Positions 8,031 to 37,280 of a stretch of DNA of 64,000 nucleotides are shown piece by piece. The notes under the pieces were generated by a model, which worked only from the letters and a program-made list of their open reading frames with translations, ran no database searches and was not told the origin of the DNA. Location: NCBI RefSeq assembly GCF_988243305.1, contig NZ_OZ547136.1; one strand, given 5' to 3'. Position numbers and translations under genes: made by a program. Position 1 is the first letter of the stretch. Each line of letters opens with the position of its first letter.

Positions 8031-8141
8031 AAACAGTTGGCAGACCAGAGGAGTCAGCAGAAAGATGAGCGGGAGTGTCGCCAGCATCGGGGACAGGGCT
8101 GATTTCCGCAATACCAGCGCCGGCATTGCAACACGTTTCAT
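8016..8141 (-). CDS. Hypothetical 41-aa hydrophobic peptide, translationally coupled to the AlpA-family gene
   Basis: MKRVAMPALVLRKSALSPMLATLPLIFLLTPLVCQLFVIIS; its ATG overlaps the alpA stop in an ATGA arrangement. Not in the ORF track (below 60 aa). Confidence 0.3.
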   Translation of the reverse strand: MKRVAMPALVLRKSALSPMLATLPLIFLLTPLVCQLFVIIS

Positions 8142-8371
8142 GCTGCTGCTCCTCGTGATTCCTCAATTCGCTGCTGCATCCACTGCTCCACTTCACTTTT
8201 GTACCAGCGGCTGCTGCGCCCCAGTTTGATGGGTTTAGGGAAATGACCTTCACTGATCAGCTTGTAAAACCATTTATCGGTCATACCGGTGAAACTGGTG
8301 ATGTAGTTCATGTCGATCAGGGGATCGTCGGCACGCAGTAACACGCTGTCGTGGCTTGTTGTGGTCAACAT
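8138..8371 (-). CDS. AlpA-family phage/island transcriptional regulator (excisionase-like HTH)
   Basis: 77 aa; ...YITSFTGMTDKWFYKLISEGHFPKPIKLGRSSRWYKSEVEQW matches AlpA-family DNA-binding proteins. Confidence 0.7.
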   Translation of the reverse strand: MLTTTSHDSVLLRADDPLIDMNYITSFTGMTDKWFYKLISEGHFPKPIKLGRSSRWYKSEVEQWMQQRIEESRGAAA

Positions 8372-27275: not shown

Positions 27276-27597
27276 ATGAAAACATTACCCGACACGCATG
27301 TACGGGAGGTATCGTGCTGCCCGTCTCCCGTCACCATCTGGCAGACACTGCTCACCCGGTTACTGGACCAGCATTACAGCCTTACGCTGAATGACACACC
27401 GTTCGCCGATGAACGTGTGATTGAGCAGCATATTGAGGCAGGTATTGCACTGTGTGATGCGGTGAACTTTCTCGTGGAAAAATACGCACTGGTACGAACC
27501 GACCAGCCGGGATTCAGCGCAGGAACTTCGTCGCAGTTAATCAACAGCATTGATATTCTCCGGGCACGCCGGGCAACAGGTCTGATGACCCGCAGCA
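27276..27597 (+). pseudogene. Type IV toxin of the CbtA/YeeV family, 3' end cut by Tn10
   Basis: [46 protein letters not shown]... is CbtA-like; from 27598 the frame reads into the IS10 outside end; the original 3' end resumes after Tn10 at 35053. Confidence 0.7.
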
Positions 27598-28923
27598 CTG
27601 ATGAATCCCCTAATGATTTTTATCAAAATCATTAAGTTAAGGTAGATACACATCTTGTCATATGATCAAATGGTTTCGCCAAAAATCAATAATCAGACAA
27701 CAAGATGTGCGAACTCGATATTTTACACGACTCTCTTTACCAATTCTGCCCCGAATTACACTTAAAACGACTCAACAGCTTAACGTTGGCTTGCCACGCA
27801 TTACTTGACTGTAAAACTCTCACTCTTACCGAACTTGGCCGTAACCTGCCAACCAAAGCGAGAACAAAACATAACATCAAACGAATCGACCGATTGTTAG
27901 GTAATCGTCACCTCCACAAAGAGCGACTCGCTGTATACCGTTGGCATGCTAGCTTTATCTGTTCGGGCAATACGATGCCCATTGTACTTGTTGACTGGTC
28001 TGATATTCGTGAGCAAAAACGACTTATGGTATTGCGAGCTTCAGTCGCACTACACGGTCGTTCTGTTACTCTTTATGAGAAAGCGTTCCCGCTTTCAGAG
28101 CAATGTTCAAAGAAAGCTCATGACCAATTTCTAGCCGACCTTGCGAGCATTCTACCGAGTAACACCACACCGCTCATTGTCAGTGATGCTGGCTTTAAAG
28201 TGCCATGGTATAAATCCGTTGAGAAGCTGGGTTGGTACTGGTTAAGTCGAGTAAGAGGAAAAGTACAATATGCAGACCTAGGAGCGGAAAACTGGAAACC
28301 TATCAGCAACTTACATGATATGTCATCTAGTCACTCAAAGACTTTAGGCTATAAGAGGCTGACTAAAAGCAATCCAATCTCATGCCAAATTCTATTGTAT
28401 AAATCTCGCTCTAAAGGCCGAAAAAATCAGCGCTCGACACGGACTCATTGTCACCACCCGTCACCTAAAATCTACTCAGCGTCGGCAAAGGAGCCATGGG
28501 TTCTAGCAACTAACTTACCTGTTGAAATTCGAACACCCAAACAACTTGTTAATATCTATTCGAAGCGAATGCAGATTGAAGAAACCTTCCGAGACTTGAA
28601 AAGTCCTGCCTACGGACTAGGCCTACGCCATAGCCGAACGAGCAGCTCAGAGCGTTTTGATATCATGCTGCTAATCGCCCTGATGCTTCAACTAACATGT
28701 TGGCTTGCGGGCGTTCATGCTCAGAAACAAGGTTGGGACAAGCACTTCCAGGCTAACACAGTCAGAAATCGAAACGTACTCTCAACAGTTCGCTTAGGCA
28801 TGGAAGTTTTGCGGCATTCTGGCTACACAATAACAAGGGAAGACTTACTCGTGGCTGCAACCCTACTAGCTCAAAATTTATTCACACATGGTTACGCTTT
28901 GGGGAAATTATGAGGGGATCTCC

Positions 28924-28926
<3 letters not shown>
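27598..28926 (+). mobile_element. IS10-left
   Basis: IS10 outside end and 402-aa transposase; the last few bases of the inside end differ from the canonical terminus. Confidence 0.85.
27705..28913 (+). CDS. IS10 transposase (IS4 family)
   Basis: 402 aa MCELDILHDSLYQFCPELHLKRLNSLTLACHALLDC... Confidence 0.9.
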   Translation: MCELDILHDSLYQFCPELHLKRLNSLTLACHALLDCKTLTLTELGRNLPTKARTKHNIKRIDRLLGNRHLHKERLAVYRWHASFICSGNTMPIVLVDWSDIREQKRLMVLRASVALHGRSVTLYEKAFPLSEQCSKKAHDQFLADLASILPSNTTPLIVSDAGFKVPWYKSVEKLGWYWLSRVRGKVQYADLGAENWKPISNLHDMSSSHSKTLGYKRLTKSNPISCQILLYKSRSKGRKNQRSTRTHCHHPSPKIYSASAKEPWVLATNLPVEIRTPKQLVNIYSKRMQIEETFRDLKSPAYGLGLRHSRTSSSERFDIMLLIALMLQLTCWLAGVHAQKQGWDKHFQANTVRNRNVLSTVRLGMEVLRHSGYTITREDLLVAATLLAQNLFTHGYALGKL

Positions 28927-29926
<1,000 letters not shown>

Positions 29927-29941
29927 CTAATTTTTGTTGAC

Positions 29942-29991
29942 ACTCTATCATTGATAGAGTTATTTTACCACTCCCTATCAGTGATAGAGAA
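29942..29991. promoter_or_regulatory. tet operators O1/O2 in the divergent tetR-tetA promoter region
   Basis: Palindromes actctatcattgatagagt and tccctatcagtgatagaga between tetR and tetA. Confidence 0.9.
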
Positions 29992-29998
29992 AAGTGAA

Positions 29999-31204
29999 AT
30001 GAATAGTTCGACAAAGATCGCATTGGTAATTACGTTACTCGATGCCATGGGGATTGGCCTTATCATGCCAGTCTTGCCAACGTTATTACGTGAATTTATT
30101 GCTTCGGAAGATATCGCTAACCACTTTGGCGTATTGCTTGCACTTTATGCGTTAATGCAGGTTATCTTTGCTCCTTGGCTTGGAAAAATGTCTGACCGAT
30201 TTGGTCGGCGCCCAGTGCTGTTGTTGTCATTAATAGGCGCATCGCTGGATTACTTATTGCTGGCTTTTTCAAGTGCGCTTTGGATGCTGTATTTAGGCCG
30301 TTTGCTTTCAGGGATCACAGGAGCTACTGGGGCTGTCGCGGCATCGGTCATTGCCGATACCACCTCAGCTTCTCAACGCGTGAAGTGGTTCGGTTGGTTA
30401 GGGGCAAGTTTTGGGCTTGGTTTAATAGCGGGGCCTATTATTGGTGGTTTTGCAGGAGAGATTTCACCGCATAGTCCCTTTTTTATCGCTGCGTTGCTAA
30501 ATATTGTCGCTTTCCTTGTGGTTATGTTTTGGTTCCGTGAAACCAAAAATACACGTGATAATACAGATACCGAAGTAGGGGTTGAGACGCAATCGAATTC
30601 GGTATACATCACTTTATTTAAAACGATGCCCATTTTGTTGATTATTTATTTTTCAGCGCAATTGATAGGCCAAATTCCCGCAACGGTGTGGGTGCTATTT
30701 ACCGAAAATCGTTTTGGATGGAATAGCATGATGGTTGGCTTTTCATTAGCGGGTCTTGGTCTTTTACACTCAGTATTCCAAGCCTTTGTGGCAGGAAGAA
30801 TAGCCACTAAATGGGGCGAAAAAACGGCAGTACTGCTCGGATTTATTGCAGATAGTAGTGCATTTGCCTTTTTAGCGTTTATATCTGAAGGTTGGTTAGT
30901 TTTCCCTGTTTTAATTTTATTGGCTGGTGGTGGGATCGCTTTACCTGCATTACAGGGAGTGATGTCTATCCAAACAAAGAGTCATCAGCAAGGTGCTTTA
31001 CAGGGATTATTGGTGAGCCTTACCAATGCAACCGGTGTTATTGGCCCATTACTGTTTGCTGTTATTTATAATCATTCACTACCAATTTGGGATGGCTGGA
31101 TTTGGATTATTGGTTTAGCGTTTTACTGTATTATTATCCTGCTATCGATGACCTTCATGTTAACCCCTCAAGCTCAGGGGAGTAAACAGGAGACAAGTGC
31201 TTAG
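29999..31204 (+). CDS. tetA: Tetracycline efflux MFS transporter TetA (class B)
   Basis: 401 aa from MNSSTKIALVITLLDAMGIGLIMPVLPTLLREF... Confidence 0.95.
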   Translation: MNSSTKIALVITLLDAMGIGLIMPVLPTLLREFIASEDIANHFGVLLALYALMQVIFAPWLGKMSDRFGRRPVLLLSLIGASLDYLLLAFSSALWMLYLGRLLSGITGATGAVAASVIADTTSASQRVKWFGWLGASFGLGLIAGPIIGGFAGEISPHSPFFIAALLNIVAFLVVMFWFRETKNTRDNTDTEVGVETQSNSVYITLFKTMPILLIIYFSAQLIGQIPATVWVLFTENRFGWNSMMVGFSLAGLGLLHSVFQAFVAGRIATKWGEKTAVLLGFIADSSAFAFLAFISEGWLVFPVLILLAGGGIALPALQGVMSIQTKSHQQGALQGLLVSLTNATGVIGPLLFAVIYNHSLPIWDGWIWIIGLAFYCIIILLSMTFMLTPQAQGSKQETSA

Positions 31205-31316
31205 TTATTTCGTCACCAAATGATGTTATTCCGCGAAATATAATGACCCTCTTGATAACCCAAGAGGGCATTTTTTACGATAAAGAAGATTTAGCTTCAA
31301 ATAAAACCTATCTATT

Positions 31317-31910
31317 TTATTTATCTTTCAAGCTCAATAAAAAGCCGCGGTAAATAGCAATAAATTGGCCTTTTTTATCGGCAAGCTCTTTTAGGTTTTT
31401 CGCATGTATTGCGATATGCATAAACCAGCCATTGAGTAAGTTTTTAAGCACATCATCATCATAAGCTTTAAGTTGGTTCTCTTGGATCAATTTGCTGACA
31501 ATGGCGTTTACCTTACCAGTAATGTATTCAAGGCTAATTTTTTCAAGTTCATTCCAACCAATGATAGGCATCACTTCTTGGATAGGGATAAGGTTTTTAT
31601 TATTATCAATAATATAATCAAGATAATGTTCAAATATACTTTCTAAGGCAGACCAACCATTTGTTAAATCAGTTTTTGTTGTGATGTAGGCATCAATCAT
31701 AATTAATTGCTGCTTATAACAGGCACTGAGTAATTGTTTTTTATTTTTAAAGTGATGATAAAAGGCACCTTTGGTCACCAACGCTTTTCCCGAGATCTCA
31801 TCTATTGAAACAGCTTGATAGCCTTTTTCAACAAACAATATTCGTGCTGAGTTAACCAGTGATTGATAGGTACTCTTAAAATTTTCTTGTTGATGATTTT
31901 TATTTTCCAT
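31317..31910 (-). CDS. tetC: Tn10 TetC (TetR-like transcriptional regulator)
   Basis: 197 aa from MENKNHQQ; conserved position between tetA and tetD. Confidence 0.8.
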   Translation of the reverse strand: MENKNHQQENFKSTYQSLVNSARILFVEKGYQAVSIDEISGKALVTKGAFYHHFKNKKQLLSACYKQQLIMIDAYITTKTDLTNGWSALESIFEHYLDYIIDNNKNLIPIQEVMPIIGWNELEKISLEYITGKVNAIVSKLIQENQLKAYDDDVLKNLLNGWFMHIAIHAKNLKELADKKGQFIAIYRGFLLSLKDK

Positions 31911-31997
31911 GATAGATTTAAAATAACATACCGTCAGTATGTTTATGGTATCATGATGATGTGGTCGTGACAATCTTAAGAACATTTAGGTTATTTT

Positions 31998-32414
31998 ATG
32001 TATATTGAACAGCATTCTCGCTATCAAAATAAAGCTAATAACATCCAATTAAGATATGATGATAAGCAGTTTCATACAACGGTTATCAAAGATGTTCTAT
32101 TATGGATTGAACATAATTTAGATCAGTCTTTACTGCTTGATGATGTGGCGAATAAAGCGGGTTATACCAAGTGGTATTTTCAGCGGCTGTTCAAAAAAGT
32201 AACAGGGGTCACACTGGCTAGCTATATTCGTGCTCGTCGTTTGACGAAAGCGGCTGTTGAGTTGAGGTTGACGAAAAAAACTATCCTTGAGATCGCATTA
32301 AAATATCAATTTGATTCCCAACAATCTTTTACACGTCGATTTAAGTACATTTTTAAGGTTACACCAAGTTATTATCGGCGTAATAAATTATGGGAATTGG
32401 AGGCAATGCACTGA
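31998..32414 (+). CDS. tetD: Tn10 TetD (MarA/SoxS-like AraC-family regulator)
   Basis: 138 aa; two AraC HTH units; stop codon lies in the IS10-right inside end as in Tn10. Confidence 0.85.
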   Translation: MYIEQHSRYQNKANNIQLRYDDKQFHTTVIKDVLLWIEHNLDQSLLLDDVANKAGYTKWYFQRLFKKVTGVTLASYIRARRLTKAAVELRLTKKTILEIALKYQFDSQQSFTRRFKYIFKVTPSYYRRNKLWELEAMH

Positions 32415-32632
32415 GAGATCCCCTCATAATTTCCCCAAAGCGTAACCATGTGTGAATAAATTTTGAGCTAGTAGGGTTGCAGCCACGAGTAAGTCTTCCC
32501 TTGTTATTGTGTAGCCAGAATGCCGCAAAACTTCCATGCCTAAGCGAACTGTTGAGAGTACGTTTCGATTTCTGACTGTGAACCGCCCCGGGAATCCTGG
32601 AGACTAAACTTCCTGAGAAAGAGGTAAACAGG

Positions 32633-32959
32633 ATGACTAAAAATACTCGTTTTTCCCCCGAAGTCCGTCAACGGGCAGTCCGTATGGTTCTGGAAAGTCA
32701 GAGCGAATATGACTCACAATGGGCGACAATTTGTTCCATTGCTCCAAAGATTGGCTGTACGCCGGAGACTCTGCGTGTCTGGGTTCGCCAGCATGAGCGG
32801 GATACCGGGGGCGGTGATGGAGGGCTCACCACCGCTGAACGTCAGCGTCTGAAAGAGCTGGAACGTGAAAATCGTGAACTGCGCCGCAGTAACGATATCC
32901 TTCGCCAGGCTTCCGCTTATTTTGCGAAGGCGGAGTTCGACCGCCTCTGGAAAAAATGA
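32633..32959 (+). CDS. IS629-like OrfA (IS3-family transposase N-terminal protein)
   Basis: [60 protein letters not shown]... Confidence 0.8.
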
Positions 32960-33846
32960 TGCCACTGCTGGATAAGCTGCGTGAGCAGTACGGGGTCGGA
33001 CCGCTATGCAGCGAACTGCATATTGCCCCGTCAACGTATTACCACTGTCAGCAACAGCGACATCATCCGGATAAACGCAGTGCCCGTGCGCAGCGCGATG
33101 ACTGGCTGAAGAAAGAGATACAGCGCGTATACGATGAAAATCACAAGGTATACGGTGTGCGTAAAGTCTGGCGTCAGTTGTTACGGGAAGGTATCAGAGT
33201 GGCCAGATGCACTGTGGCACGTCTCATGGCGGTTATGGGACTTGCCGGTGTTCTCCGGGGTAAAAAGGTCCGTACGACCATCAGCCGGAAAGCCGTTGCC
33301 GCAGGCGACCGCGTAAACCGTCAGTTCGTGGCAGAACGACCTGACCAGCTGTGGGTGGCTGATTTTACTTACGTCAGCACATGGCGGGGCTTCGTCTATG
33401 TGGCGTTCATCATTGATGTGTTTGCCGGATACATCGTGGGGTGGCGGGTCTCATCGTCCATGGAAACGACATTCGTGCTGGATGCACTGGAGCAGGCGTT
33501 ATGGGCCCGTCGACCGTCCGGCACGGTCCATCACAGTGATAAAGGTTCTCAGTATGTATCGCTGGCCTACACACAGCGGCTTAAGGAAGCCGGATTACTG
33601 GCATCAACAGGAAGTACAGGCGACTCGTATGACAACGCGATGGCGGAGAGCATCAATGGTCTTTACAAAGCGGAGGTAATACACCGTAAGAGCTGGAAAA
33701 ACCGTGCAGAAGTGGAACTGGCCACACTCACGTGGGTGGACTGGTATAACAATCGACGATTGCTGGAAAGGCTGGGCCATACTCCTCCGGCAGAAGCAGA
33801 AAAAGCTTATTATGCTTCCATCGGAAACGATGATCTGGCAGCCTGA
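32956..33846 (+). CDS. IS629-like OrfB (DDE integrase/transposase core; normally expressed as OrfAB by -1 frameshift)
   Basis: 296 aa with DDE-type core (…WVADFTYV…HHSDKGSQY…DNAMAES…). Confidence 0.8.
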
Positions 33847-34945
33847 GTTCACAGATAAAACACTCTCCAGGAAACCCGGGGCGGTTCACTGTGTTAGCCT
33901 GGAAGTGCTTGTCCCAACCTTGTTTCTGAGCATGAACGCCCGCAAGCCAACATGTTAGTTGAAGCATCAGGGCGATTAGCAGCATGATATCAAAACGCTC
34001 TGAGCTGCTCGTTCGGCTATGGCGTAGGCCTAGTCCGTAGGCAGGACTTTTCAAGTCTCGGAAGGTTTCTTCAATCTGCATTCGCTTCGAATAGATATTA
34101 ACAAGTTGTTTGGGTGTTCGAATTTCAACAGGTAAGTTAGTTGCTAGAACCCATGGCTCCTTTGCCGACGCTGAGTAGATTTTAGGTGACGGGTGGTGAC
34201 AATGAGTCCGTGTCGAGCGCTGATTTTTTCGGCCTTTAGAGCGAGATTTATACAATAGAATTTGGCATGAGATTGGATTGCTTTTAGTCAGCCTCTTATA
34301 GCCTAAAGTCTTTGAGTGACTAGATGACATATCATGTAAGTTGCTGATAGGTTTCCAGTTTTCCGCTCCTAGGTCTGCATATTGTACTTTTCCTCTTACT
34401 CGACTTAACCAGTACCAACCCAGCTTCTCAACGGATTTATACCATGGCACTTTAAAGCCAGCATCACTGACAATGAGCGGTGTGGTGTTACTCGGTAGAA
34501 TGCTCGCAAGGTCGGCTAGAAATTGGTCATGAGCTTTCTTTGAACATTGCTCTGAAAGCGGGAACGCTTTCTCATAAAGAGTAACAGAACGACCGTGTAG
34601 TGCGACTGAAGCTCGCAATACCATAAGTCGTTTTTGCTCACGAATATCAGACCAGTCAACAAGTACAATGGGCATCGTATTGCCCGAACAGATAAAGCTA
34701 GCATGCCAACGGTATACAGCGAGTCGCTCTTTGTGGAGGTGACGATTACCTAACAATCGGTCGATTCGTTTGATGTTATGTTTTGTTCTCGCTTTGGTTG
34801 GCAGGTTACGGCCAAGTTCGGTAAGAGTGAGAGTTTTACAGTCAAGTAATGCGTGGCAAGCCAACGTTAAGCTGTTGAGTCGTTTTAAGTGTAATTCGGG
34901 GCAGAATTGGTAAAGAGAGTCGTGTAAAATATCGAGTTCGCACAT
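33728..34945 (-). pseudogene. IS10-right transposase, C-terminus replaced by read-through into IS629
   Basis: Identical to the IS10-left transposase for about 350 residues, then diverges (…ANTVNRPGFPGECF…) at the IS629 junction. Confidence 0.8.
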
Positions 34946-35113
34946 CTTGTTGTCTGATTATTGATTTTTGGCGAAACCATTTGATCATATGACAAGATGT
35001 GTATCTACCTTAACTTAATGATTTTTACCAAAATCATTAGGGGATTCATCAGCCCGCAGCAACTACAGAACGGTAAATAACATTACCCGGGGGAAGCATC
35101 CGGAGGCGAAACA

Positions 35114-35536
35114 ATGAAACTGGCCCTGACGCTGGAAGCCGACAGCATTAACGTGCAGGCACTGAACATGGGGCGCATTGTCGTTGACGTCGATGGTGTT
35201 AATCTCGCTGAACTGTTTAATAAAGTCGCGGAAAATGGTTATTCACTCCGCGTGGTGGATGAGCGTGTCACTACCGAAACACCGGCGACCTCTGCCAGCC
35301 CTCATCAGTTGCCGGAAGACAATACAGTGATACAGAGCGTAATGCCATTAGCCACAGAAACGGCGCTGGATATTCTGATTGTGTGGCTGCAGGACAATAT
35401 CGACTGCGAATCGGGGATTATCTTCGACAACGATGAGGATAAAACGGATTCGGCAGCACTGTTGCCCTGCATTGAACAGGCCAGGGAAGATATCCATACC
35501 CTGCGCCAACTACAGCTTCTGCACCAGAACCGGTAA
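35114..35536 (+). CDS. Hypothetical protein in the position downstream of cbtA (YeeW-like position)
   Basis: 140 aa ORF beginning 53 nt after the Tn10 right end; family not verified. Confidence 0.4.
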   Translation: MKLALTLEADSINVQALNMGRIVVDVDGVNLAELFNKVAENGYSLRVVDERVTTETPATSASPHQLPEDNTVIQSVMPLATETALDILIVWLQDNIDCESGIIFDNDEDKTDSAALLPCIEQAREDIHTLRQLQLLHQNR

Positions 35537-35620
35537 ATATTACTCACCATACTTCATTCCACTGACGCCAGCCTGAACAGGGCTGGCGTTTTCATTTATC
35601 TGCAAAAAGGAAAAACGATT

Positions 35621-36463
35621 ATGTCTGAAATCACAGTCTCCCGTCCGGAAGTGGTCAACGGACATACGGACGTTATCTGCTCAACCTCAGTCAGCCACAT
35701 TCTGGCTGTACGAAAGAGTACACTGTTGCAAATCGACATACTTATCCGGCAACTGGCTGAAATCTCAGCAATGACAGAAAGTATTGGCGGTAAAACCGCA
35801 CTGGACTGGGCCATGAAACAGGATTTTCGCTGCGGCTGCTGGCTCATGGAGAAACCTGAAACGGCAATGAAAGCCATTACCCGCAACCTTGACCGTGAAA
35901 TCTGGCGTGACCTGATGCAACGCTCCGGGATGCTGTCATTAATGGATGCGCAGACCCGTGATACATGGTACCGGTCACTGGAGTACGATAATTTTCCGGA
36001 AATCAGTGAAGCGAACATTATGAGCACATTTGAACAACTGCACCAGAATAAGGATGAGGTGTTTGAGCGGGGAGTGATTAACGTCTTCAGGGGACTGAGC
36101 TGGAATTATAAAACCAACTCTCCCTGTAAATTTGGCAGTAAAATTATCGTCAACAATCTGGTGAGATGGGGCCGGTGGGGATTTCATCTTATCACCGGAC
36201 CACAGACTGACCGGGTTGCCGACCTGGAAAGGATGCTGCATCTCTTCAGTGGCATCCCCACTCCCGACAACCGGGAAAATATCATAATTCGTCTGGATGA
36301 GCATATCCGGTCTGTTCAGGGTAAAGAGTACTATGAAGACGAAATGTTTATCATTAAATACTTTAAGAAGGGATCTGCACACATCACTTTCAAAAGGCTG
36401 GAACTGATTGACAGAATTAACGATATAATAGTCAGGCACTTTCCTTCTGTGCTCTCAGCCTGA
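35621..36463 (+). CDS. Conserved hypothetical island-distal protein (possibly DUF4942-like; uncertain)
   Basis: 280 aa ORF with RBS aaaagga; last gene before the island boundary. Confidence 0.4.
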   Translation: MSEITVSRPEVVNGHTDVICSTSVSHILAVRKSTLLQIDILIRQLAEISAMTESIGGKTALDWAMKQDFRCGCWLMEKPETAMKAITRNLDREIWRDLMQRSGMLSLMDAQTRDTWYRSLEYDNFPEISEANIMSTFEQLHQNKDEVFERGVINVFRGLSWNYKTNSPCKFGSKIIVNNLVRWGRWGFHLITGPQTDRVADLERMLHLFSGIPTPDNRENIIIRLDEHIRSVQGKEYYEDEMFIIKYFKKGSAHITFKRLELIDRINDIIVRHFPSVLSA

Positions 36464-36573
36464 TCCCGAGTGTGATTCCCTTTCGATATCAAAAGGGACT
36501 GCGGGTATAATTGAGGGTACATTTTTAATCAAACCAAACAAATCAGATTAATATCAATATGATAAAAGAAATT

Positions 36574-36595
36574 TTCGATTCCGAGTCCGGCACCA
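36574..36595 (+). other. Island right junction (attR-like): direct repeat of the tRNA-Phe 3' end, one G missing
   Basis: ttcgattccgagtccgg-cacca matches the T-arm/acceptor 3' end of E. coli tRNA-Phe (TTCGATTCCGAGTCCGGGCACCA); not a complete tRNA. Confidence 0.7.
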
Positions 36596-36609
36596 CTAAT
36601 TCTTAAGAA

Positions 36610-36631
36610 CCCGCCCACAAGGCGGGTTTTT
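36610..36631 (+). terminator. Rho-independent terminator (native tRNA-Phe downstream terminator)
   Basis: cccgcc cacaa ggcggg followed by ttttt. Confidence 0.6.
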
Positions 36632-36743
36632 GCTTTTGGATCTGACAATAACCTTCACGAAAAAACTTAGCTTATAAGGTCTGGGGGAATTACTCTCGCC
36701 ACGTTAACGAGAGTAATTTTATTGATATTAATCTCCTGATACT

Positions 36744-37280
36744 TTACCCCCGTCCAAACTCCAGCCGCTGCACATTCACCATCCCAGGCTTCTCAGCAGC
36801 ACTGACATCAATTTGTGTCACCCGCAGCGCATATTTTTCATCCAGTGCGTTTAACCATTTCAGAAGGTCATTAAACACCACAGGTTCTATCCAGACCTGA
36901 ATATTCTCCCCACGCTCGGCTATCCGCTTGATGACCACCGAGTGCGCGGAAGCACTGTCACTGATGACCCGCGATACCTGCGCAGGCGTTGTTGTGGCAG
37001 ATTTTCGCGCTGCAATAATATCCGGCGCGGCGCTCTTCAGTCGGGTGTTCATTGCCACCAGCTGCTGCAACATCGTCTCCTGTTGTTCTATCCGTTCGCT
37101 CAACGGCTGCCAGATGAGGACGTAATATCCGGCGCTAAACAGGAACACCGCCGCTGCCAGTAACATGCCTTTTTCACGCGGAGAACGCCCCGCCAGGTGT
37201 TGTGTCAGCCAGTGTTCGCCACGGCTTAACTGGCGTTCACGCCATTGCTGAAAATAGTGAATAAATTTATCGCGTAACAT
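36744..37280 (-). CDS. gspM: T2SS inner-membrane protein GspM
   Basis: 178 aa, last gene of a collinear gsp operon; single TM segment. Confidence 0.75.
   Translation of the reverse strand: MLRDKFIHYFQQWRERQLSRGEHWLTQHLAGRSPREKGMLLAAAVFLFSAGYYVLIWQPLSERIEQQETMLQQLVAMNTRLKSAAPDIIAARKSATTTPAQVSRVISDSASAHSVVIKRIAERGENIQVWIEPVVFNDLLKWLNALDEKYALRVTQIDVSAAEKPGMVNVQRLEFGRG

Follow-up and report, generated by a model that had tools for sequence, protein, structure and literature searches.

Organization of the locus

The window analyzed here, a 64,000-nucleotide (64-kb) stretch of contig NZ_OZ547136.1 from NCBI RefSeq assembly GCF_988243305.1, holds the right-hand portion of a genomic island followed by a segment of the Escherichia coli chromosome. 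The features on which the analysis relies are listed below, with the strand given where one was assigned.

1-36573, island portion within the window (collinearity with the WP4 island; annotation, Pfam, Rfam)
8138-8371, minus strand, AlpA-family small DNA-binding protein (Pfam PF05930, E=2e-10)
27598-35052, Tn10-derived tetracycline-resistance transposon, 7,455 bp, inserted in the cbtA toxin gene
29294-29920, minus strand, tetR
29951-31204, MFS tetracycline-efflux-type gene
31317-31985, minus strand, TetR-family gene
31998-32414, AraC-family gene
35621-36463, plus strand, DUF4942 gene, the last of the island and typical of a CP4-like right end (Pfam PF13708, E=9e-64)
36464-36573, plus strand, proposed island-side arm of attR (P arm), non-coding, from the DUF4942 gene to the core
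36574-36595, plus strand, proposed attR core, a 22-nt copy of the tRNA-Phe (pheV/pheU) 3' end (homology breakpoints at both ends; published match)
36596-36642, plus strand, native pheV downstream sequence with a predicted intrinsic terminator (hairpin 36604-36632, then a T-run)
36744-37280, minus strand, yghD (gspM), the nearest chromosomal gene on the right-hand side of the island (ORF list; annotation of matching regions)

An earlier note on this DNA had described the island as a mosaic of several modules, a description that is borne out by annotation, Pfam, and Rfam. The cargo within the window consists of a group II intron remnant, grpP to grpS, with which a glycyl-radical propanediol microcompartment locus ends, pseudogene remnants of TetR and RND genes, the AlpA-family gene, and a pseudouridine/nucleoside utilisation cluster. 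The window starts inside a gene with a reverse-transcriptase domain, and a group II intron catalytic domain is found at 339-410 (Rfam RF00029, 50.4 bits); together, these point to an intron remnant located between grpO and grpP of the propanediol microcompartment locus. The AlpA-family protein is a candidate excision regulator or directionality factor, with AlpA of CP4-57 and the Rox protein of the she PAI as the models for this presumed role. The island ends in a CP4-like module which encodes a GTPase, DUF905, DUF932, antirestriction, RadC, DUF987, CbeA/CbtA, DUF5983, DUF957, and DUF4942 proteins. A DUF4942 gene also precedes attR in N1241, WP4, N385, and several other strains; APEC O1 differs in having an EAL-domain gene interposed between the two.

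The CbeA antitoxin gene of this module is intact, while its partner toxin CbtA has been truncated to 119 amino acids by the transposon. The insertion is bounded by IS10 ends and by a 9-bp target duplication, CCCGCAGCA, at 27589-27597 and 35053-35061. Inverted IS10 copies with RNA-OUT (found twice by Rfam), a tetR/tetA module, and the 9-bp duplication identify the element as Tn10-derived; we take the MFS, TetR-family, and AraC-family genes to be, probably, tet(B), tetC, and tetD. Canonical Tn10 is ∼9.1 kb, whereas the insertion here is shorter and one of its IS10 copies, the right one, is split by a ∼1.3-kb IS3-family element (∼32581-33887; ALIL pseudoknot 32914-33030). The Tn10-like insertion is a later event that is separate from the att site. 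The truncated CbtA of the cbtA::IS10 junction was also found, as an exact match, in two draft genomes at NCBI and in four metagenome assemblies (loci L040-L045, including GCA_029997405.1 contig JAASXM010000037.1 and the ENA assemblies ERZ28647627, ERZ28647756, ERZ27246475, and ERZ28648055), which indicates that the island-plus-Tn10 variant circulates. Most of these contigs stop ∼12 to 80 bp past the truncated gene, just inside IS10, and one 43.8-kb draft contig breaks off ∼16 kb left of where the window starts, without reaching the integrase.

A partial copy of the tRNA-Phe 3' end lies at the island boundary

The sequence TTCGATTCCGAGTCCGGCACCA at 36574-36595 occurs once in the 64 kb, where shuffled sequences give an expectation of 0. 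The 3' end of K-12 pheV reads TTCGATTCCGAGTCCGGGCACCA (locus L002 2420-2442), and the window retains 22 of these 23 nt, from the start of the T-loop to CCA, with the GGG run reduced to GG. From 36596, ∼60 nt are identical to the sequence downstream of pheV in K-12, the first differences falling in an A-run near 36666. Within this segment, a terminator scan flagged a hairpin and T-run at 36604-36632, for which folding gives a stem of 10-12 bp. Placed after CCA as in the native gene, this GC-rich hairpin with its T-run is predicted to act as an intrinsic (Rho-independent) terminator. Comparison with K-12 pheV therefore confirms the earlier note in reading this site as a 22-nt tRNA-Phe 3'-end repeat that lacks one G and is followed by the native terminator. 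The range that it gave, 36574-36631, starts at the correct base but falls one base short at the other end, as the hairpin closes at 36632 and the T-run continues to ∼36642.

Three comparisons place the island boundary on this repeat. First, in BLAST searches of the window against the fetched loci, homology to K-12 sets in exactly at 36574 and homology to the pheU island of WP4-S17-ESBL-08 stops exactly at 36595, such that the breakpoints coincide with both ends of the 22-mer and synteny with island-free genomes resumes precisely at the repeat. Second, identity to the related pheV island of N1241 is 99.87% over the final 1,512 bp of the island (one or two differing positions against the N1241 and WP4 islands) but only 96.0-96.1% over the adjoining 1.5-3 kb on the right of the 22-mer. 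The last 60-70 nt of the P arm are identical in the N1241 (pheV) and WP4 (pheU) islands, and this arm may bind integrase. Third, the exact YghD protein of the window, which adjoins empty pheV sites in related assemblies, led to records in which the first 10 kb of the flank are 99.98-99.99% identical. These include GCA_053164755.1, GCA_974490465.1, GCA_047312265.1, GCA_025967805.1, and the GenBank record CP170299.1. Two such close-flank loci (L036 and L039) have the empty arrangement yqgA-pheV(GGG)-terminator-yghD, and a third (L037) has a different island with the same GG 22-mer at its end. The claim that the repeat marks the right end of the island is upheld by the breakpoints, the drop in identity from 99.9% to 96.0%, and the empty sites in relatives.

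Taken together, the sequence comparisons suggest, with a probability of about 0.9, that 36574-36595 is the ordinary attR of a genomic island at E. coli pheV. The site has the form of an attR of a tRNA-integrated island, namely a partial copy of the tRNA 3' end at the tRNA-distal boundary. It also falls into the class of imperfect GI-pheV attR sites described in PMC11537424, in which the identical string stands beside the pheV-distal flank. That the 22-mer is instead a chance or relic tRNA-like fragment unrelated to the boundary could be argued from the shortness of the match and from nothing else. Such a coincidence is vanishingly improbable given that none is expected in shuffles, that the breakpoints are exact, that relatives have empty sites, and that the native downstream sequence follows.

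To the right of the boundary, 36596-64000 contains a complete T2SS-beta/sslE region, which is deleted or reduced in K-12 and N1241, and the sRNA C0719 at 55481-55702. Segment 40000-64000 finds its best full-length match at 97.5% identity in a set of 5,426 complete RefSeq E. coli genomes, none of which covers ≥80% of 24000-48000. The 97.5% value had raised the idea of a divergent host lineage, which is softened by the GenBank assemblies that match the first 10 kb of the flank at 99.98-99.99%.

The tRNA gene and integrase are predicted at the far left end

The earlier note had placed an intact tRNA gene and an integrase beyond position 1 of the window and concluded that the island exceeds 36.5 kb. 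ARAGORN and Rfam found no tRNA genes in the 64-kb window, and no second sequence resembling the tRNA-Phe end was found within it. The prediction is supported by proxy, by the islands of N385 and WP4-S17-ESBL-08, and concerns DNA that lies outside the window itself. These two islands, located at pheV beside yghD in N385 and at pheU in WP4-S17-ESBL-08, are collinear copies of ∼65.5 kb each. Each has an intact tRNA-Phe gene and, after it, an identical integrase of 421 aa (WP_001218773.1), whose Arm-DNA-bind_3, Phage_int_M, and Phage_integrase domains make it P4-type. In N385 and WP4, ∼36.35 kb separate the tRNA-Phe gene from the point equivalent to window position 1 on its right, and the window segments 1-27597 plus 35053-36595 are collinear with WP4 at 99.986% identity. 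Judging from these copies, the tRNA-Phe gene and integrase should lie beyond position 1, and the island would measure ∼73 kb including the 7.46-kb Tn10-like insertion, provided that its left part is intact.

The proxy islands also carry a hairpin terminator of their own, AATTCATATCAACGGACCTCCACGGAGGTCCGTTTTT, straight after the intact tRNA 3' end (L004 13317-13360; L029 17060-17102, minus strand; L003 29132-29175). Most likely, a P4-type tyrosine-integrase island of the GI-pheV type, with a CP4-like right end, integrated into the 3' end of pheV and produced the attR 22-mer. Integration would have displaced the native pheV terminator and yghD from the tRNA gene, leaving both after the 22-mer as they are now. 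The far left end, ∼36 kb outside the window, would then contain the functional pheV, the replacement terminator of the island, and the integrase. The predicted left junction reads yqgA-pheV (76 nt, GGG), then AATTCATATCAACGGACCTCC and the 421-aa P4-type integrase, ∼36.35 kb to the left. At the second tRNA-Phe locus, what appears to be the native pheU flank is the remnant of a similar island end, with an integrase pseudogene (a frameshifted fragment) upstream of cadC, in the strains examined (WP4, EC7518, RM12275-C1, GABEEC10, Esc4, and NGF1).

The GG form is the usual allele of the island family

The frequency of the missing G was determined in the 5,426 complete E. coli genomes using 28-nt exact seeds that must span the G-run. 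The island arm (AAGAAATT) is followed by GG in 1,031 genomes (1,124 places) and by GGG in 43 genomes (44 places), a minority class to which homopolymer errors in the public assemblies may contribute. On the other side, GG precedes the pheV flank in 1,024 of the 5,426 genomes, about a fifth (1,026 places), and a pheU-remnant or P'-type flank in 1,226 genomes (1,269 places). The same form appears in the literature. Table 1 of PMC11537424 (PLoS Genet 2024) gives the attR as TTCGATTCCGAGTCCGG-CACCA in 16 of 41 reference GI-pheV islands, including those of APEC O1, S88, ED1a, H10407, 12009, CB9615, 55989, 042, 536, and REL606, and gives the perfect 23-mer in none of those islands. In addition, PMC6174562 describes 22-bp repeats with a one-base shift at pheU and pheV alike. 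From these counts and published sequences, the missing G is the standard inherited allele of the att site of this island family rather than damage specific to one strain.

The earlier note had suggested that the single-base deletion may affect excision. This suggestion is not sustained, as GG is the normal attR allele and islands with a GG or otherwise imperfect attR are reported to excise. PAI V536, which has the GG attR, excises by means of its own integrase or that of PAI II536, according to reviews citing Hochhut 2006. The SHI-1/she PAI, with its imperfect right repeat, is reported to undergo precise integrase-mediated excision between the repeats (PMC1550401, citing Sakellaris 2004). A recent mutation or sequencing error of one strain that cripples attR and immobilises the island is accordingly very improbable, and this explanation is already contradicted by the population counts, with the same GG 22-mer in >1,000 complete genomes per flank type and in 16 published islands. 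In its favor, the discussion in PMC11537424 notes that single-base differences between repeats can lower island deletion rates, and a comparison of N385 with N1241 shows that the run can change on short timescales. Apart from that G, these two strains of the same collection have identical sequence around attR, over ∼1 kb on its left and 600 nt on its right, with GGG in N385 (L028 630-652) and GG in N1241 (L001 20975-20996). The alignment suggests that the difference is either a very recent one-base change or an assembly difference.

The GG 22-mer was also found, as an exact match, at 22 loci (L005-L026) in species-representative genomes outside the E. coli scan. The genera are Yersinia, Citrobacter, Pantoea, Erwinia, Xenorhabdus (eight loci), Sodalis, Rouxiella, Edwardsiella, Pectobacterium, Brenneria, Budvicia, and Limnobaculum, and two MAG contigs have it with E. 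coli-like pheV or pheU flanks. The left flanks of the cross-species loci are of five or more kinds, among them partial tRNA copies of 48-49 nt as in the SPI-7/HAI2 type. In Pantoea sp. IMH (L008), GG is part of a complete tRNA-Phe gene, and a Marinobacter match (L015) lies without a tRNA-like flank. We considered whether GG across species is a selected, conserved feature, which is unproven as the scan covered the GG variant only; moreover, GGG is the sole homopolymer run of the 23-mer, and 48-nt GGG versions exist (L027, L035). Among phages, the best 60 matches of a pheV BLAST search against 50,697 phage records were whole tRNA genes only, with no partial attP-type matches, and exact scans of IMG/VR gave 0 matches for the GG form and one for the GGG form.

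Which side of the crossover carries the G-run

The one-base difference between the repeat and the tRNA gene could originate from the element or from the chromosome. The reading that we consider probable is that GG belongs to the element (P side) and that strand exchange takes place in the terminal ≤7 nt (GGCACCA). On this reading, TTCGATTCCGAGTCC-GG would be the part contributed by the element, attL would keep the GGG of the host, attR would have the GG of the element, and excision would regenerate an intact tRNA gene. The corresponding attP would read ...GATAAAAGAAATT-TTCGATTCCGAGTCC-GG-CACCA-AATTCATATC..., with intact pheV (GGG) as attB.

This assignment is based on what accompanies GG on its two sides. 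On the left, GG is found with homologous island arms, in three variants (...GATAAAAGAAATT, ...GATAGAAGCAATC, and ...GATAGAAGCATTC). On the right, it is followed by at least three pheV flank haplotypes, by the pheU remnant, and by tandem junctions with the integrase end of another island. The GG state thus tracks the island arm across unrelated right flanks and is therefore probably carried by the element. Additionally, in the 16 GG copies of PMC11537424 there is no substitution besides GG, which suggests identity by descent together with the island arm and not repeated decay. The intact 76-nt GGG pheV of UTI89, which stands on the flank haplotype of the APEC O1 attR, may be an example of a restored tRNA gene. 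Of the points that weigh against the element as the source of GG, one is that the tRNA is under purifying selection, which confounds any link of the G-run state to the left context, and another is that the run, as the N385/N1241 pair shows, mutates or is sometimes mis-assembled. A GG tRNA at the left island end in EcPF5 and MS15046 was discarded as proof of an element-borne GG, as these are only two of ∼520 junctions.

Tandem arrays were examined at three loci (L063-L065), where the integrase of another tRNA-Phe island (WP_021517872.1 or WP_001218742.1; IS1-truncated in L064) comes directly after a CP4-like right end (DUF4942) and the GG 22-mer. The three arrays have three different island-arm variants. 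At L066, the same right-hand integrase end (WP_001218741.1) follows a left element that is not CP4-like, and the repeat differs at its first bases.

The converse, that the 22-mer is the displaced 3' fragment of the host pheV, with strands exchanged at the T-loop or T/acceptor junction and the G lost later, is in our estimate rather unlikely. Crossover subsites are said, in work attributed to Williams from 2002, to lie at the T-loop or at the T/acceptor-stem junction, with the element restoring the 3' part of the tRNA. Such a textbook position would put the G-run on the chromosomal side, and the first T-loop base is indeed exactly where the block of identity begins. Likewise in its favor, the repeats of other intP4 island types deviate from the tRNA in a cluster at positions 1-8 (PMC11537424). 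However, GG stands beside several unrelated right contexts and always with a homologous island arm. In the tandem junctions, the integrase end of the right-hand partner nearly always follows a GGG core (521 places; 12 of 12 sampled are tRNA genes) and rarely a GG core (seven places, two of them in a tRNA gene). Furthermore, a single flank type of 99.98-99.99% identity bears the GGG empty sites of L036 and L039, the different GG island of L037, and the attR of the window, and UTI89 has its GGG pheV on an APEC O1-type flank.

A chromosomal origin of the missing G would have a consequence for the host, in that a defective pheV of 75 nt would result whenever the integrase excises the island, and the site would tend to remain occupied or to become re-occupied (lock-in). 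Complete genomes contain genes of this description. Behind a tRNA-like left flank, GG is found in 46 complete E. coli genomes, and about half of the sampled matches are annotated as tRNA-Phe. Of 12 examined 75-nt GG tRNA-Phe genes (pheV/pheU), 10 lie at island-free junctions (loci of such genes are L046, L047, L050-L053, L055, and L057-L060; for example, NZ_CM149870.1 925332-925406). Some of these, in agreement with a chromosomal origin, have the flank haplotype seen in GG attR sites. In UPEC129 and KE48 the flank matches APEC O1, other strains with such genes at island-free junctions are HCP5S3_I2, Z1323CEC0015, EC7518, GABEEC10, and Esc4, and the GG tRNA-Phe of RM12275-C1 has an additional substitution in the anticodon stem. 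These 75-nt genes, whose acceptor stem lacks the G, may be excision scars from a crossover on the left of the G-run, slippage mutants, or assembly errors. GG tRNAs are, though, similarly rare (∼0.2-0.4%) at empty and occupied sites, as slippage or assembly error predicts. That the missing G is on the chromosomal side, with integrase-mediated island loss producing a 75-nt defective pheV/pheU and hence lock-in, we regard as unlikely.

Relation to known tRNA-Phe islands

The site described here is already familiar. The GI-pheV attR of PMC11537424 has the same string at the same locus (yqgA-pheV ... yghD) and belongs to islands with P4-type integrases; a presumed difference from those reference islands is the cargo, which here combines grp propanediol-microcompartment and pseudouridine-utilisation genes with a Tn10-like insertion. 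Among the islands found, those of N385 at pheV and WP4-S17-ESBL-08 at pheU are the closest copies. SHI-1/she PAI of Shigella flexneri likewise lies downstream of pheV and is described in PMC1550401 as having an imperfect repeat of the 3'-terminal 22 bp of pheV on its right, but its cargo is sigA, pic, and set. PAI V536 of uropathogenic E. coli 536 is at pheV with the same GG attR, and is described as having 23-bp flanking repeats; it differs in carrying the Pix pilus and K15 capsule. The LAA pathogenicity island of LEE-negative STEC is flanked by 23-bp imperfect direct repeats of the pheV 3' end between yqgA and yghD, but differs in cargo and module structure. Finally, conjugative islands of the SPI-7/HAI2 type target either tRNA-Phe copy and leave a partial tRNA at one end, with GG in some copies. 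Their repeat, in contrast, is 48-49 nt and starts from the anticodon stem, and they have another integrase family and backbone (ParA, DnaB). The island described here is not of the SPI-7/HAI2-type family.

The attR is thus no new kind of system. Its exact sequence, locus, and imperfection are already in the literature, and a grp island at pheV with a Tn10 derivative is at most a new instance. For this genome, the analysis places the right end of the island with single-base precision, assigns it to pheV, predicts the position of the tRNA gene and integrase, and removes the idea of a damaged repeat. Were the G to be missing on the chromosomal side, the occurrence of GG tRNA-Phe genes at island-free junctions of complete genomes would be accounted for, and lock-in would promote the retention or renewed uptake of islands at ∼20% of the tRNA-Phe sites in E. 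coli. The single base by which attL and attR differ is a natural marker for the side of the G-run on which tRNA-Phe-specific P4-type integrases exchange strands. The same marker could reveal whether excision restores or damages the tRNA gene, a small point on the stability of these islands.
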